From: Spizellomyces punctatus DAOM BR117
Taxonomy: Eukaryota
DNA length: 64,000 nucleotides
NCBI GenBank assembly: GCA_000182565.2
Contig: KQ257452.1
Reading direction: 5' to 3' (one strand)
Every line of letters begins with the position of its first letter. Within the stretch, counting starts at the first letter, position 1. Of the stretch, positions 10,780 through 60,114 are shown piece after piece. The notes beneath the pieces are model-generated. The model searched no databases and was not told where the DNA came from. It saw only the letters and a list, made by a program, of their open reading frames with translations. The position numbers and the translations under genes are program-made.

Positions 10780-11546
10780 NNNNNNNNNNNNNNNNNNNNN
10801 NNNNNNNNNNNNNNNNNNNNNNNNNNNNNNNNNNNNNNNNNNNNNNNNNNNNNNNNNNNNNNNNNNNNNNNNNNNNNNNNNNNNNNNNNNNNNNNNNNNN
10901 NNNNNNNNNNNNNNNNNNNNNNNNNNNNNNNNNNNNNNNNNNNNNNNNNNNNNNNNNNNNNNNNNNNNNNNNNNNNNNNNNNNNNNNNNNNNNNNNNNNN
11001 NNNNNNNNNNNNNNNNNNNNNNNNNNNNNNNNNNNNNNNNNNNNNNNNNNNNNNNNNNNNNNNNNNNNNNNNNNNNNNNNNNNNNNNNNNNNNNNNNNNN
11101 NNNNNNNNNNNNNNNNNNNNNNNNNNNNNNNNNNNNNNNNNNNNNNNNNNNNNNNNNNNNNNNNNNNNNNNNNNNNNNNNNNNNNNNNNNNNNNNNNNNN
11201 NNNNNNNNNNNNNNNNNNNNNNNNNNNNNNNNNNNNNNNNNNNNNNNNNNNNNNNNNNNNNNNNNNNNNNNNNNNNNNNNNNNNNNNNNNNNNNNNNNNN
11301 NNNNNNNNNNNNNNNNNNNNNNNNNNNNNNNNNNNNNNNNNNNNNNNNNNNNNNNNNNNNNNNNNNNNNNNNNNNNNNNNNNNNNNNNNNNNNNNNNNNN
11401 NNNNNNNNNNNNNNNNNNNNNNNNNNNNNNNNNNNNNNNNNNNNNNNNNNNNNNNNNNNNNNNNNNNNNNNNNNNNNNNNNNNNNNNNNNNNNNNNNNNN
11501 NNNNNNNNNNNNNNNNNNNNNNNNNNNNNNNNNNNNNNNNNNNNNN
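10780..11546. other. Assembly gap (N run)
   Basis: Run of N. Confidence 1.
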
Positions 11547-12976: not shown

Positions 12977-13076
12977 NNNNNNNNNNNNNNNNNNNNNNNN
13001 NNNNNNNNNNNNNNNNNNNNNNNNNNNNNNNNNNNNNNNNNNNNNNNNNNNNNNNNNNNNNNNNNNNNNNNNNNNN
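12977..13076. other. Assembly gap (100 N)
   Basis: Run of N. Confidence 1.
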
Positions 13077-32111: not shown

Positions 32112-32419
32112 GAGGCGGCCTACAACTTGTAGAGCTCTCAGGCCCTCTGGTATTGCTGTAATTAAGAAACTTGAATGGGAGAAAAAGTAACTTGCTCTAC
32201 AAGTAGGCGGAGGCCTGTGGTAGAGCTTTGGCTAAAGGCACGCTGATGACACGCGACAAAAGTCATGTGCCCAATGCAGTTCAAGTCATTTGCAGTGCCA
32301 GTTGCAAGCGACGGAACAAAAACAAAAACAAAAACGTTACTTCAATGGGGAAACAAAGGCCAAATCTTCAATATTTAAACCAAGGTGCACCTTTACAAAA
32401 ATATCTACACTAAAAAAGT

Positions 32420-32435
32420 AGAGCTGAAAAGCTCT
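32420..32435 (-). promoter_or_regulatory. Histone-stem-loop-like hairpin in H2A 3' UTR
   Basis: AGAGCT-TTTC-AGCTCT-AC on transcript strand, 68 nt after the stop. Confidence 0.55.
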
Positions 32436-32503
32436 GATTTCGTTTTTTAAAATCAAAGATCGGTCTTGACCGATGAAGGGTGTATGCGTGTGTAAGTAGG
32501 TGT

Positions 32504-32990
32504 TTACTGAGATTCTCCTTGGCTGCCCTTGGCGCCCTTTGTCTTCTTTGGCAAAAGGACAGAGTGGATGTTCGGGAGGACACCTCCTTGGGCGATTGTG
32601 ACGTTGCCAAGTAGCCTGTTGAGTTCGTCGTCGTTGCGGATGGCAAGCTGGAGATGGCGGGGAATGATACGGGTCTTCTTGTTGTCACGAGCGGCATTTC
32701 CAGCAAGCTCTAGAATTTCAGCAGCAAGATACTCAAGAACGGCAGCCAAGTAGACGGGGGCACCTATGCAGAATGATTTATCTTAGCCTATGGACCAAAA
32801 AGCACTATGGTTGATCATTTATCGGATATAGACACATACCAGCTCCGACACGCTGCGCGTAGTTGCCCTTGCGCAAGAGACGGTGGATACGACCGACTGG
32901 GAATTGGAGACCCGCACGAGCGGAACGAGACTTTGAGTTGGTCTTGGCGGCTACCTTTTCGGCACCAGATTTTCCTTTTCCTCCGGCCAT
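32504..32990 (-). CDS. HTA: Histone H2A (one intron)
   Basis: [43 protein letters not shown]...[12 protein letters not shown]. Confidence 0.98.
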
Positions 32991-33391
32991 TGCTGTGTAA
33001 GGTGTGCGTGAGAGAGAGGGTCGTGAGTGAGTCTTGAAGAGAAACGTCAAAGCTTGAAGCGTAGCAGAATACGGAAAACGACTTGGGGGAATGGCGAGGA
33101 GCGTCGCCTTTTATGCTCCAAGCGGAGACGATGAGGCCGATATTACAGTGGCTTAGTAGCGTGTACAATATTTCCATAAAAGGCTACATGGTGAGTTTTT
33201 CACGTGACCGTAATTAGTCCCAATTAGGCTTTATTGTATATTGCTACTAAGCATCGTTAAATGACCTGCTCGAAGCTTCGTCTATAAAAGGCGGGCGTGT
33301 GTGCGCTTCCCCCGCTACGTCTTTTTCACAAACACTTTGCGACTTGACCAAGACCTTTCACCCGCACCACTCTCATCCATCACACACACAA
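32991..33391. promoter_or_regulatory. Divergent H2A/H2B promoter
   Basis: Head-to-head histone genes; TATAAAA at 33283-33289 (+) and CATAAAA at 33109-33115 (-). Confidence 0.7.
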
Positions 33392-33925
33392 ATGGCACCC
33401 AAGGAAGCTCCCGCTGCTGCAGCCCCTACTGGTGGCAAGAAGGTGACTTTTGTCGTGAGCTTGAAGCATGAGGACGTCAGAATCTAATATCGTCCGCTTT
33501 GACAGCCCGCTGGAAAGGCACCCGCAAAGCCCGCAACAGAGAAGAAGGAAAAGTCAAAGAGGAAGACTATCCGTCGTGAGACCTACTCTACATACATCTA
33601 CAAGGTGTTGAAGCAAGTGCACCCCGACACTGGTATCTCCAACAAGGCCATGTCCATCATGAACTCTTTCGTCAACGACATCTTTGAGCGTATTGCGGGA
33701 GAGGCATCCAAGCTCGCTGCCTACAACAAGCGCTCCACCATCAGCTCACGTGAGATTCAAACCTCAGTGCGTCTTATTCTTCCCGGTGAACTTGCCAAGC
33801 ACGCTGTTTCTGAGGGTACCAAGTATGTACTCGCCTTGCTTGAATGAAAGTTGCTGCTTTCAGATTGTTGACAATCGATTTTCCACTACCGTAGGGCTGT
33901 GACGAAGTACCAGTCTGCTAAATAA
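33392..33925 (+). CDS. HTB: Histone H2B (two introns)
   Basis: [40 protein letters not shown]...[16 protein letters not shown]. Confidence 0.98.
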
Positions 33926-33992
33926 GCTCCGCGCTCCGTCTCTTTTGCATAGTATAATATTTGGATCATGCGCCCGTCGGTGGCTTCATTCC

Positions 33993-34010
33993 GCGTTTTT
34001 GTCAAAACGC
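33993..34010 (+). promoter_or_regulatory. Histone-stem-loop-like hairpin in H2B 3' UTR
   Basis: GCGTTTT-TGTC-AAAACGC-AC, 67 nt after the stop. Confidence 0.45.
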
Positions 34011-34250
34011 ACTGCAAACGTTTTGTTTTGTAAATAGTTGATAATAAATTGCTTGAATTTGAAATCTACAAGTTGGTTTGCATGTTCCTGCTTTGTCATA
34101 TAGATACCGCATTGGTGAATATTTGCCAGGCGTTGCCGTGGCAACAGCAATGCGTCCCTTTGCAAGTCTGTTCCTCTTGACGCCTACCTCGCCCGACTCT
34201 TTCGTTATACATCATCTATTCAACTGTCTCCTGTAGTAAATCAGTAAATC

Positions 34251-35408
34251 ATGTCAGACCCGATGGATCTTTCCCTTGAGGATATCATTTCCGCAAAATC
34301 CCGTGGAAGGGGGGGACGCGGACGAGGACGCAGGAACCTCAGAGGTCCAGGGCGGCGGAATAACGCTGATGGGGAAGACGTAGCGTTTTCAGTGACCAAC
34401 ACGCTCTCGCGCTCGCCAAGAACTGGACGCGGAGGACGCAACCGAAATGCAGATAAGCCGTATGCTCGGGGAAATGTTGAGGGGCAGTGGAAACACGATC
34501 TTTTCGATGGTCCGAATGCGCAGCGGGGTAGAACTGTTTTAGGAACTGCGAGAGGAGGTAGCAGCGAGAGTACGCGCATTCGCATTGAAAACTTGCATTG
34601 GAATGTACGTGTTATTCGGCTTTGTGATATGCAGACCATTCTTGCTCTCATACGGACACTAACTGGTTTCTTGGCTTTCCAAAGGTTACGGAAGCGGACA
34701 TCTGGGAACTTATGGGGTCGGTACAAAACGCACCGATATGAGCATTTGTTGTCACTTGCCCAAATCTTTTTGAGACGCGATCGTTAATCGAAGCCTCACC
34801 TTCCTCTTCATCCACCCATCTATTGATGGATTCCTCGAATACTCTTTCCTTTCTTTGCATATTGCAGCTCGCTCGGTCATCCGGTGAAGAATGTCAAGAT
34901 TTTCTACGACAATGCTGGCCGGTCGGAAGGTAATGCCGAAGTGACCTTTGAAACTCTCGAAGCCGCACAGGTTGCCATCGATACGTTCGACGAACGAGAA
35001 CTCGACGGAATGAAGATGAAGATTACTTTATTGGAACGAAGCGGCCGGGGCGGCTCAGGAAAAGTTACAAGTCGCCTTGGGCCTAAATCCCAGGGGAGCA
35101 TTTTATCGCGGTTAGGTCAAAAGTTGGAAGACCGGCTTGGACCTAGAGTAGGAAACGGGGCTGGGAGGGGTGCTGGTGCCGGTGGTCGTGGACGTGGTCG
35201 GGGTAGGGGCCGTCCAACCCCAGCAAGTAAAACTGATTTGGACGACGAAATGGATCGCTATATGAGCGGAGAACCCGAACCTGAACAAGGTGCTCCTCCA
35301 GCAAATGGTGGAGGAATTCATCGCGACTTGGATAGACCGATTGGAGGCGTGCAGCGAGAAATCATCAGTTATGATGATGTGGACACACCTGCCGTGATGC
35401 AGGTGTAA
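34251..35408 (+). CDS. YRA1: mRNA export adaptor Yra1/ALYREF (RRM, RGG)
   Basis: N-box MDLSLEDII, WKHDLF, RRM (IENLHWNVTEADI..YDNAGRSEGNAEVTF), RGG and C-box DLDDEMDRYM. Confidence 0.9.
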
Positions 35409-40540: not shown

Positions 40541-40928
40541 AGGAAAGGGGGTTTGGTGCACAGACGTCTAATTGGGTTGCTATAGCGTAGCTGTATTTGC
40601 TTCTGCCATACCTTTCATAATCATTGTAGAGTATATTTATTGCAACATGTCAAAGGGGATGACATTCCCTCATATTATTTTGTGAAAATGTGGTAGTGTA
40701 CTGGGCACACGTTAAGCAATGTTAAGCACTGATGACTAGTGGTGGTTGGCAACGGCAACGCCGGTGAGTAAGCGGCAGTGGTATGCAAACATGAGTTCTG
40801 CGGAGGATATAGAGGCAATGTCAAACGTTGCCTTTGCTTTACGACATAACAGCCTTCAACCTTTTTGGACATCATTGGCCATTCTTCTACGACATTCATA
40901 CGACATTGTTTCTTCCTTTTTAAAGGCC

Positions 40929-41116
40929 CTCGGCGTCACCCAGAGATAGTGCAAGACTGGGGACACCCGTGCCAGGCGTCTAGGGCAAGCCCATCAACTC
41001 CCAGCGGAATTCAAAAATTAGTTTGATAACAATTGTCCACAATGTGAACAGATTCAGTTATCAGACTGAATAGAACAGATACTACACTTGATCTTAGCCA
41101 AAAGGCCTGAGAGGAT
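40929..41116 (-). ncRNA. U2: U2 spliceosomal snRNA
   Basis: Minus strand ATCCTCTCAGGCCTTTTGGCTAAGATCAAGTGTAGTATCTGTTCT (branch-pairing GTAGTA), Sm site AATTTTTG, loop IV TTGCACTA; TATA box at 41151-41160. Confidence 0.97.
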
Positions 41117-41449
41117 TAAAGAAAACAGGAGGGGGGACGGGGAACGGCGCTTTTTTATAGGCGATGGAGAACTGCGCTGTGGCGCAGATTGAAAAATGAA
41201 AAATGCATTTGATTGGCTGACTCTGTTGCCGTGAGAACATGTCATTTCTAGAAGGTTCTTGCCACCAGCAGTCACATACGCGGTGGGTGGACTGTATTAC
41301 ATAAGACCAATCACGATCAGTTCAGAAAGGATGGCAACAACACCATGTTTGTTTTTGATTAAAGACAGGTGCACACTATACAAGCCAAATCATATTATTT
41401 CATCCAAGCTATACAGTCACCGCGCTTTGGTTCTTTGTACAATCCTTCT

Positions 41450-45743: not shown

Positions 45744-46052
45744 ATCGACAGCTTTCGAGCTCTAAAGGAGTTTAATGCGGTTTCCTTTCTGTGCGAGACA
45801 GCACTTTGTAAGGCCCGATTGTGAATTGGGTTTTTGTTTAATCTAGCGGAGGTATCGACCTTGGGTAGATGTCATGTACAACCGCGTCCTTGGGTGCTGG
45901 GAGACCTAATTTTGGAGCGGATTGGTTTGGGGCAACCGGTTTGGCCTTTTTTTCCCGGTTGGACGGACGGTTTCGGTTTTTGTTCATCCACAGTACGGTT
46001 GACACAATCTGCTTTAGAGAATACACTTTGTCTCTTCTAAAAGTCGCCGGGC

Positions 46053-48305
46053 ATGCGACCCGCCAAGTGTCCTGAAGGATGGTGCATTCGACAGCTTCTC
46101 ACTTCTGTTGTCAGCACTCAACGGCGTTCAATTACCGTGCGGGCTGCACGTGCAGCAGCCAGGGCACAGGCACAGCGGGAAACTGAGGCTCAACAGCGGG
46201 CGAGTAGGCGAGATCCGTACCGTCCTGTTGCTGCTCGTCCACTAGGACCAGTACCCATGGACGTGCAGCGGGCGTACGGGGTGTTTCGGCGTGGATTAAT
46301 TGAAGGAAATCTCGAGGTTGTGCTTCCCAACTATCGTATCGTCGCGGCCCGAAAGTATCTGCACGCTATCTCTCTAGAGGAGTTTTGTTTAGTGTTGCGA
46401 GCGCTTGCAGAGCCCCTAAATGACCGTCGCTACGTACCTGGAAAGGAAGAAGTTGATCAATGGAAGAGCGTCTTCAATGATTTGATTGCAAACTGTTTTA
46501 ACCACGAAAGAGGTCACGTTCCCGAGGATATTTACGCTATTTTCATCGATGCATACAGTCGTCGGGGCGACATAGAGAGCCTTTCAAAGATCTGGGATCA
46601 CATGCATCGTGATGGTGTGCAGCCCTCTTTGAACAGTTACAATCTAATTCTAAAATGTTGCGCAAAAGAAGGCTTGTATGAAAAAGCCGAGGAAGTCTAC
46701 CACTCACTGCTGCTGAGACCCGATATCGAGCCGGATGCCACCACCTATTCTGCTCTCATTAATGTGCGAGCAAGCGTGTCGGATATTCCTGGCGCTCATG
46801 GCATCTTGGAAAAGTTGCTGGAGACTGGAGGCAAGCCTCCCATAAAAGTTTTGAACGCATTGTTGACGGCTCATAAGAAACAGGGCGATTTGGAGGGCAC
46901 GGAGGAGTTATTTGCATTGATCAAGAAGAACGGTCTAGTACCCAATATTGCAACCTATAACACAATGCTGGATGCTTACAGCAAAGCGAACGCCCTTGAA
47001 AAAGCGGTAGCCATCGTGAACGAGATGCAAAGTGTTGCTGACAGCTCCTCACGGCCTTACTGTGCGCCAGATTTTATTACTTATAACATTCTTATCAACA
47101 TGTTCGGAAAGGCCGATAAACCTGAGGACGCATTGAAGTTATTTCACGACATGCTTGAACGCGGAATCCCTCCAGATGTGGTTACTTTCACTTCGATAAT
47201 GGATGCTTACGGGCGTCAAGGGGATCTGGAGAGCACCAGGACCTACTTCAATATGATGCATCAGTATGGGCTGATTCCTAGCGCTGCATCTTACGCCGTC
47301 CTCATCAACGCCATGGGCTATCAGGGCGATCTAAAAGCAGCAGAGACTGTTTATACCGAAATGGTTCAAAGAGGTATATCACCTACCCGGCCTGTGTATC
47401 GATCATTAGTTAGGGTGCATGAAATTGCCAATGATCCTCAAGGGGCAGCAAGATGGTACATGGAGATGACAGACAAGCACATTTCGCCTGACGTGACGAC
47501 ATTAATATCGATTATGCGAGTCCATGTGCGGAACGCGCAGTCAGGGCAGAATCTTTTGGACGTCATCCGAACTTACTACAAGGATGCGGAGCGGTTTGGG
47601 CGATTGAAAGTTGGTATTTGCAACGAACTGCTGCGCGCACATTTGAAATGTGGGGTTAGTGTGGCTGAAGCAGTTAGTACTGTGTACGAGACGGAGTTTC
47701 GGATGCGAAGGATACCTCCCAATTCGTTTACCCTCGAGATTCTGGTTCAGCATGGAGCATCAGCGAGAGAAGACGGTGGGAGCGGCACAGAAAGTGATTT
47801 TCCTGAAGCGGCAGAGATGGAGCAAAAGTGGCGAAATATGGTTGAGAACCACCCACACACAAGCACTGGGTCTAGCACGAACCAAAGCAAACTGAGTTCC
47901 AAAAGTATTACGTCGGCGGACAGAGATGCCGAACAACAAGCTCGGACAGATCAGCCAACCCCGAGTCAGCCAGCAACGCGGGAGCACATCATTCAAGCAT
48001 TTGTGAGAATGGCCGATCGCGCCCGGAGGGGTGATTCGATAACGCAGCAGGAAAGAATAACCATAACCTATGAACAGTTGATGGAAGCACGCGCTTTGCT
48101 GGAGGTGTTTGGCGACCTATTGAAGGCTGGAACAGTCCCAGGTGAGTTTGCGTTGAACACGATGGCCAAGCGTGTGGAGCAGTTACTGGGGAAGATGAAC
48201 TGGGTAGAAGAGTCTGGGGCATTGATGACGGCCGCGAGCAACACACGGATTCCGGCGCCTACGGATGGAACATCTTTGCTGGATACACCCCCGATTAAGT
48301 ACTAG
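46053..48305 (+). CDS. Pentatricopeptide repeat (PPR) protein, probably mitochondrial; intronless
   Basis: Tandem ~35-aa repeats (TYNTMLDAYSK, TYNILINMFGK, PDVVTFTSIMDAYGR); Arg-rich N-terminus. Confidence 0.92.
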   Translation: MRPAKCPEGWCIRQLLTSVVSTQRRSITVRAARAAARAQAQRETEAQQRASRRDPYRPVAARPLGPVPMDVQRAYGVFRRGLIEGNLEVVLPNYRIVAARKYLHAISLEEFCLVLRALAEPLNDRRYVPGKEEVDQWKSVFNDLIANCFNHERGHVPEDIYAIFIDAYSRRGDIESLSKIWDHMHRDGVQPSLNSYNLILKCCAKEGLYEKAEEVYHSLLLRPDIEPDATTYSALINVRASVSDIPGAHGILEKLLETGGKPPIKVLNALLTAHKKQGDLEGTEELFALIKKNGLVPNIATYNTMLDAYSKANALEKAVAIVNEMQSVADSSSRPYCAPDFITYNILINMFGKADKPEDALKLFHDMLERGIPPDVVTFTSIMDAYGRQGDLESTRTYFNMMHQYGLIPSAASYAVLINAMGYQGDLKAAETVYTEMVQRGISPTRPVYRSLVRVHEIANDPQGAARWYMEMTDKHISPDVTTLISIMRVHVRNAQSGQNLLDVIRTYYKDAERFGRLKVGICNELLRAHLKCGVSVAEAVSTVYETEFRMRRIPPNSFTLEILVQHGASAREDGGSGTESDFPEAAEMEQKWRNMVENHPHTSTGSSTNQSKLSSKSITSADRDAEQQARTDQPTPSQPATREHIIQAFVRMADRARRGDSITQQERITITYEQLMEARALLEVFGDLLKAGTVPGEFALNTMAKRVEQLLGKMNWVEESGALMTAASNTRIPAPTDGTSLLDTPPIKY

Positions 48306-59400: not shown

Positions 59401-60114
59401 CGTACTCAAAAGCTGCACGGTATTAAACCGGACATAGAAGTCGACTTCCTCCAAAATGTCAAGCAATAAAGTGACGTTTGCTGGGTCCTGCGGGGTCGGT
59501 GTCGTCAGGTATATTTCTTGCCCCCCACGCGTCTCTCATTGACCGAACCTTTGTATAAATCTCTGTAAACATGACACCTAAGTCATTCGGATCGTCAGCG
59601 CCCTTTGGAGTTGTAGGTAAAGTTTTAGCCCAGTGCGTTGGTGCGTCCCTTGAAGCCCGTGTTGAGAAAACATTCGTGTCCTACCCCTTTGTTCGGCGTA
59701 TCCAAAGTGCATAGCACATTCAAAGTTTCTACAGTGGCCTTTACAATGTCCACATCCATGCGGTCGTTCCGTAATACATTGATGAGAACCGGCATACCCT
59801 TCGTCCCTACTTCCTGCACACGTGTGTTAACATCAGTAGACTTTCTTATAAATTGCATTCGGACTATCAGTACACTACGCAATCCCACAGTCCCAACAGA
59901 CTATCTATCTCTGCGACTTGGGACTCTTTCATTTGCTACTAACCAATTTCCAGTCTCGAGCCAGGCCTTTCAAGCCCATCACCGCGGCTCTCCGGTCCTC
60001 CAGCAATGTCGAGTTCTGCACTCTGTCACATAGCTTATGAACCGTTTCCGCCCCAGATTGAGGAGTACCTTTATCGCCTCTTAATGCCGAGTATCCTTGG
60101 AAAAAAACATTCAT
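56440..60114 (-). CDS. USO1: Vesicle tether Uso1/p115 (multi-exon)
   Basis: ETVHKLCDRVQNSTLLEDRRAAV, IQKIIAFENAFERL, DGGIIVQDCL, C-terminal EQEDLLVCLADQD and acidic tail. Confidence 0.95.

Follow-up and report, generated by a model that had tools for sequence, protein, structure and literature searches.

Probable divergent histone 3' stem-loops downstream of an intron-containing H2A/H2B gene pair in the chytrid Spizellomyces punctatus

In a stretch of 64,000 nucleotides (nt) from Spizellomyces punctatus DAOM BR117 (contig KQ257452.1 of assembly GCA_000182565.2), hereafter called the window, the 3' untranslated regions (UTRs) of a histone H2A gene and of its histone H2B partner each contain a small hairpin resembling the histone 3' stem-loop of animals. 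Taken together, our results make it fairly probable that both hairpins go back to the histone mRNA 3' stem-loop of ancestral eukaryotes and have since diverged, and that they are bound by SLBP inside a spliced, polyadenylated mRNA. Descent from this stem-loop is very probable for the H2A hairpin, judging from its sequence, and probable for the H2B hairpin on account of its position and key bases, the H2B sequence as a whole being a weak match. According to the textbook view, the SLBP/stem-loop system has been lost entirely in fungi.

The two elements are located as follows:

32418..32441, minus strand: H2A histone-stem-loop-like element, composed of a GAAAUC flank, the stem-loop AGAGCU-UUUC-AGCUCU and AC, and supported by the Rfam model RF00032, by our own model R1 (see below) and by its local fold
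33993..34012, plus strand: H2B hairpin GCGUUUU-UGUC-AAAACGC-AC, with a 6-base-pair (bp) register, CGUUUU-UGUC-AAAACG, at 33994-34009

On the mRNA strand, the H2A stem-loop extends from 32435 to 32420 and is followed by AC (32419..32418) and then by UUUUUU, so that its stem is flanked by GAAAUC on the 5' side and by ACUUUU on the 3' side. In H2B, the 6-bp register places a G at stem position 2 and leaves a seventh pair possible; the 6-bp stem is flanked by AUUCCG on the 5' side and by CACUG on the 3' side, AC following the 7-bp stem. Both hairpins follow a core histone stop codon in sense orientation, and the distance from stop to stem is exactly 68 nt in both, H2B being counted in its 6-bp register. 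They are built in the same way: the 6-bp stem has G-C as its second pair and is closed by U-A, and the 4-nt loop has U as its first and third bases. The bases that are identical in both are the G-C pair 2, the U-A pair 6 and U1, U3 and C4 of the loop, and four of the six stem pairs (positions 1, 3, 4 and 5) are changed on both sides with pairing retained. Stem changes of this type, with retained pairing and key bases, fit an SLBP-type constraint; the comparison can be taken as suggestive at most, because the hairpins are paralogous and not orthologous.

These observations agree well with the original prediction, in which the H2A hairpin had been described as a 6-bp stem with G2, a U-A closing pair and a UUUC loop, 68 nt from the stop, as found here. 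The H2B hairpin, described with its U-A-closed UGUC loop and its AC, is also recovered, and the corrections to the description amount to one-base shifts of coordinates. The remark that the stems differ while the loop pattern, the closing pair, the 3' AC and the position match is likewise borne out at the sequence level.

Within its own context of 28-30 nt, each hairpin forms the structure of minimum free energy (-6.9 kcal/mol for H2A and -6.7 kcal/mol for H2B), shuffled sequences folding at least as well in 7/200 and 10/200 cases for the two hairpins, and each is also present in the fold of the whole 3' UTR. The folding energies of the whole UTRs are unremarkable (z-scores of -1.75 and +1.57 for the two histone UTRs), and a MAFFT alignment of the H2A and H2B 3' UTRs gave no meaningful overall similarity.

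Perfect hairpins with a 6-bp stem and a 4-nt loop are frequent in the window, with 17 observed for a mean of 16.7 in simulated sequences, and 3 of these 17 fall in the two histone 3' UTRs. A strict filter based on the known SLBP determinants requires G as the second and U as the sixth base of the stem, with U as the first and third bases of the loop. Of all these hairpins, on either strand of the window, only those of H2A and H2B pass it. In 200 first-order Markov simulations, the strict type occurs 0.125 times per window on average, and at least twice in 1% of the simulations. In a looser scan accepting G-U pairs and any UNUN loop, 21 hairpins are found, 4 of them closed by a U-A pair, and only the H2A one is then also followed by AC.

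The H2A hairpin is furthermore matched significantly by two independent covariance models. A permissive RF00032 search covering 32300-34150 (1,851 nt) gave a score of 22.8 bits (E 0.0022) for this hairpin, the gathering score of RF00032 being 34 bits. For calibration, we used metagenome loci with H2A relatives, 80 of which were collected with H2A exon 2 as the query; these come mostly from protists, animals and SQEL-type fungi. RF00032 was run on 16 of these 80 loci, 12 with a hairpin downstream of H2A and 4 from SQEL-type fungi. At the H2A-downstream hairpin, 10 of the 12 loci were matched, with 17.7-34.9 bits; L045 and L072 were not, and the gathering score was reached by a single locus, L021. 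None of the 4 SQEL-type fungal H2A loci matched RF00032 at E<=10. As environmental stem-loops score 17.7-34.9 bits, the 22.8 bits of H2A are typical of non-animal stem-loops; and as only 1 of the 10 matched environmental stem-loops reaches 34 bits, the gathering threshold is a curatorial one, which does not define the biology.

The second model, R1, was built from the alignment of 33 distinct environmental H2A stem-loops located at most 110 nt past the stop, and their selection demanded G2, U6 and a U-N-U loop, so that these bases are invariant by construction. The whole 64 kb was searched with R1, unfiltered and on both strands. This search returned 14 matches at E<=10, headed by the H2A hairpin with 17.9 bits (E 0.0038); the runner-up scores 10.4 bits.

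The metagenome set also provided an observation of another kind. In two environmental eukaryote contigs, 5S ribosomal RNA genes (L045, 364-482, and L058, 844-962) adjoin the H2A genes, and the H2A stem-loops of these two contigs are U-A-first (UGUCCU... and UGCUCU...).

Several points weigh against the retention of an SLBP-type stem-loop in both genes. As regards the models, the H2A score is lower than the gathering score of RF00032, and a scan of the window with Rfam at gathering thresholds yields the U2 small nuclear RNA (snRNA) only. In the region searched with RF00032, the H2B hairpin has no match at E<=10, and under R1 it obtains 8.4 bits (E 4.6), ranking 9th out of 14. As regards the hairpins themselves, H2B is devoid of an A-rich 5' flank and obtains its G2 only if six of its seven stem pairs are taken as the register; the ACCCA 3' flank is absent from both hairpins; and stem positions 3-4 of H2A are purines, environmental stem-loops having mostly pyrimidines there. 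As regards the comparison with other organisms, the H2A tail found here occurs in none of the 80 metagenome loci and the intron position is shared by one of them (L012). Since no orthologous chytrid UTR is present among these loci, they provide no phylogenetic covariation. In addition, no H3 or H4 motif was found by motif search anywhere in the 64-kb window, and the strict hairpin criteria were chosen after the hairpins had been seen. Finally, in the only relevant preprint (see below), the stem-loop criterion is lax (a 6-bp stem and a 4-nt loop, with one mismatch, any loop sequence and a distance of at most 300 nt), and stem-loop-like hairpins are reported also in fungi without SLBP (10.64898/2026.10.14.759114).

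The earlier claim that an SLBP-type stem-loop is kept in an early-diverging fungus is partly supported: the organism is a chytrid, the H2A hairpin is matched by two covariance models and the preprint reports SLBP in chytrids, while the H2B hairpin is significant by neither model alone.

The U-A closing pair and the uridines at loop positions 1 and 3 matter for SLBP. As for the other determinants, SLBP binding is described as requiring the G of the second stem pair (G7), whose contacts with Arg181 are the sole base-specific ones, and full affinity is said to need two adenines on the 5' side and one on the 3' side (PMC10388802). A search of the full-text literature on SLBP and chytrids gave a single relevant item, a bioRxiv preprint dated 16 Oct 2026 (10.64898/2026.10.14.759114), available in part. 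In this part, SLBP orthologs with an RNA-binding domain are reported in Chytridiomycota and are stated to be absent from Dikarya, and stem-loop motifs are described as variably and partially retained in chytrid histone genes, at some loci only. For S. punctatus, an SLBP coding sequence is reported, and this SLBP is stated to be expressed and to be enriched with histones in multinucleate stages. The same part also indicates that stem-loops, variants of the polyadenylation signal (PAS) and poly(A) tails coexist, and that no fungal genome has LSM10 and LSM11 together (10.64898/2026.10.14.759114). A search of the window for SLBP motifs found no SLBP, the single TPNK, at 59699, being in an unrelated context. 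The presence and expression of SLBP are taken from the literature, the hairpins, their key bases, their spacing and their excess being computed here.

The two histone genes form a divergent, head-to-head pair, with H2A on the minus strand and H2B on the plus strand, and both contain introns:

32840..32990, minus strand: histone H2A exon 1, with the ATG at 32990-32988, identified by an AGLQFPV motif and by the spliced translation
32764..32839, minus strand: H2A intron of 76 nt, GTATGT...CATAG, the reading frame being restored over the junction
32504..32763, minus strand: histone H2A exon 2, with the stop codon TAA at 32506-32504 and matches to Pfam Histone_H2A_C (E 5.2e-21) and Histone (E 2e-08)
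32991..33391, no strand assigned: divergent H2A/H2B promoter and 5' UTRs, 401 bp, matched exactly by published primers
33392..33925, plus strand: histone H2B gene, with exons at 33392-33442, 33506-33822 and 33895-33925, two introns, the stop codon at 33923-33925 and a match to Pfam Histone (E 8.4e-16)

After splicing, translation gives products of 136 amino acids for H2A and 132 amino acids for H2B. The C-terminus of H2A, ...KGSQGESQ (32504-32530, minus strand), is devoid of a terminal SQ-E/D-hydrophobic motif, unlike that of many of its metagenome relatives, which end in SQEL, SQEY or SQEF.

Three primers published for S. punctatus, directed at the H2A/H2B promoter and at the coding sequence of H2B, each have a single, exact match in the window, the H2B reverse primer corresponding to 33899-33922. 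The length given for the S. punctatus H2A/H2B promoter, 401 bp, is the start-to-start distance in the window (PMC7213984, of which part was accessible, here and below). The published S. punctatus transformation vectors driven by this promoter carry the yeast ADH1 terminator (PMC7213984), so that the native H2A and H2B 3' UTRs are untried in that system. In the same work, the H2B coding sequence was amplified from complementary DNA (cDNA) primed with oligo(dT)18 (PMC7213984), which points, indirectly, to a poly(A) tail on the H2B mRNA.

Downstream of the stop codons, the two UTRs contain the following additional elements:

32392..32400, minus strand: UUUUGUAAA, 19 nt past the H2A stem, a candidate polyadenylation or processing element
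34026..34034, plus strand: UUUUGUAAA, 16 nt past the H2B 6-bp stem
34043..34048, plus strand: canonical poly(A) signal AAUAAA, separated by 30 nt from the AC of the H2B hairpin
32459..32474, minus strand: second perfect hairpin of the H2A 3' UTR, AUCGGU-CAAG-ACCGAU, 29 nt past the stop and not stem-loop-like

The introns of both genes and the AATAAA some 30 nt past the H2B hairpin had been announced in the original prediction and are indeed there. The window contains 3 copies of UUUUGUAAA for 0.82 expected, and 2 of these 3 are inside the histone UTRs. In the 300 nt downstream of H2A, none of the nine PAS hexamers of the preprint was found. Two other candidates were considered and dropped. TGTAAA is not obvious as a general poly(A) signal: of the ends of 14 further long reading frames, not all of which need be true ends of genes, 2 have it within 220 nt. 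A Rnt1-type AGNN tetraloop is ruled out, the loops being UUUC and UGUC.

These hairpins sit in the 3' UTRs of a replication-type H2A/H2B pair of a Spizellomyces-type chytrid, and a mechanism could be proposed on this basis. The chytrid's own SLBP would most likely bind them via the second (G-C) and closing (U-A) pairs and the uridines of the loop, and this binding would couple the export, translation or stability of histone mRNA to nuclear division. The 3' end would probably be generated by ordinary cleavage and polyadenylation, tens of nt downstream, near UUUUGUAAA and, for H2B, near AAUAAA, since U7-type machinery is not known from the chytrid lineage. No U7 was found in the window with Rfam at gathering thresholds, a result whose scope is the window and not the whole genome. 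A canonical U7-dependent, non-polyadenylated 3' end, at which the mRNA stops 4-5 nt past the stem and a purine-rich downstream element pairs with U7 snRNA, is argued against by the oligo(dT)-primed H2B cDNA, by AAUAAA and by UUUUGUAAA. The stem-loop would then lie inside a spliced, polyadenylated mRNA rather than form its terminus, and, if so, a role for 3'hExo would be unlikely. Another possibility, to which we give little weight, is that the hairpin and UUUUGUAAA could constitute one bipartite, histone-specific 3'-end signal, i.e., a chytrid counterpart of the animal stem-loop and histone downstream element (HDE). Such a signal would recruit SLBP and then U7-independent cleavage, possibly with the addition of a short tail by a non-canonical poly(A) polymerase.

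The observations made on H2B raise the question of whether the H2A hairpin could be the only retained stem-loop, the H2B hairpin being a decayed remnant or an unrelated structure in an mRNA handled purely by AAUAAA-dependent polyadenylation. The scores of H2B with both models are what would be expected in that case, and so are the canonical AAUAAA 30 nt past its hairpin, the cloning of H2B cDNA by oligo(dT) priming (PMC7213984) and the reported retention of chytrid stem-loops at some histone loci only (10.64898/2026.10.14.759114). This explanation would, however, leave to coincidence the same 68-nt spacing from the stop, the same G2, U-A closing pair and U-U-C loop bases, and the occurrence of UUUUGUAAA downstream in both UTRs. 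Moreover, about 14 R1 matches (E<=10) per 128 kb correspond to about 0.016 expected in sense orientation for a UTR of 150 nt. We therefore regard the restriction of the stem-loop to H2A as unlikely.

A different explanation is that the hairpins and UUUUGUAAA might together be a signal for 3'-end formation or termination peculiar to this lineage, or the site of another RNA-binding protein, the likeness to the animal element being convergent. The flanks are non-canonical, without ACCCA and, in H2A, with a run of six U after AC; the H2A UTR contains a second perfect hairpin that is not stem-loop-like; UUUUGUAAA is without counterpart in the animal system; and stem-loop-like hairpins are reported in fungi without SLBP (10.64898/2026.10.14.759114). 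Convergence accounts less well for the fact that the bases common to both hairpins are those read by SLBP, and that H2A matches models trained on genuine stem-loops only, including part of the 5' flank, AAA-C. SLBP is, in addition, reported to be present and co-expressed with histones in S. punctatus (10.64898/2026.10.14.759114), and convergence appears to us improbable.

The hairpins are not chance: structures arising by accident in AU-rich UTRs, which the abundance of perfect 6-bp/4-nt hairpins and the ordinary stability of the whole-UTR folds might have suggested, are a highly improbable explanation because the strict type is found twice for 0.125 expected, each copy follows, in sense orientation and at equal distance from the stop, one of the two histone genes, the only ones in the window, and the H2A match keeps an E of 0.0038 window-wide.

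Other features of the window are described here for completeness. The right-hand neighbour of the histone pair, at 34251-35408 on the plus strand, encodes a protein with an RGG-rich N-terminus, an RRM and a FoP_duplication domain, an architecture that we take to recall ALY/REF-type mRNA export adaptors. A single-exon PPR protein is encoded at 46041-48305; it is 88% identical to a protein of Spizellomyces sp. 'palustris', the next match being at 26%. The U2 spliceosomal snRNA gene, at 40924-41118 on the minus strand, is full-length (RF00004, 151.1 bits, E 3.4e-31). Two runs of N, at 10780-11546 (767 bases) and 12977-13076 (100 bases), are presumably assembly gaps.

When compared with the metazoan and protist element described by RF00032, both hairpins have the same 6-bp stem and 4-nt loop, G-C pair 2, U-A closing pair, U1 and U3 of the loop and AC after the stem, and they lie, like it, within about 100 nt past the stop of core histone genes. 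The H2A hairpin also has the A-rich 5' flank ending in C of many environmental stem-loops. They differ from the RF00032 element by their first pair, which is A-U (H2A) or C-G (H2B) and not G-C, by the purines at stem positions 3-4 of H2A, by the lack of an ACCCA flank and of a purine-rich downstream element, and by a score under the gathering threshold. The stop-to-stem distance of 68 nt differs from that of the environmental set, which is mostly 17-60 nt. At the level of the system, H2A and H2B have introns, and the hairpins probably precede the poly(A) site rather than mark the end of the mRNA.

With respect to the preprint, the lineage is the same and, by the primer matches, so is the species used there for expression. 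H2B fits its class of stem-loop plus PAS (the SLBP-SL-PAS state), and H2A fits its class of stem-loop without PAS (the SLBP-SL state), as none of the nine PAS hexamers is present in the 300 nt downstream; H2A may even be the 'PAS-lacking histone H2A locus' of the preprint. In its available part, no sequences are given for this locus, and equal spacing, a shared UUUUGUAAA and compensatory stem differences are not mentioned (10.64898/2026.10.14.759114). As the preprint makes the case across the fungal tree, our finding is a confirmation at one locus and not a discovery. What is added here is a stricter test, which sets the H2A hairpin apart from hairpins in general as a real relative of the stem-loop. 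The equal distances from the stop codons, the compensatory changes between the stems and the common 9-mer UUUUGUAAA, as a candidate processing signal, are small additions beyond the concept already known from the accessible part of the preprint (10.64898/2026.10.14.759114).

The divergent H2A/H2B pair, the introns, which some fungi also have, and the probable poly(A) tails are finally reminiscent of Dikarya, e.g., S. cerevisiae. Unlike this chytrid, Dikarya are reported to be without SLBP (10.64898/2026.10.14.759114). Survival of the SLBP/stem-loop system in chytrids would date its loss to within fungal evolution, and would make this chytrid a tractable organism in which the stem-loop coexists with introns and poly(A).

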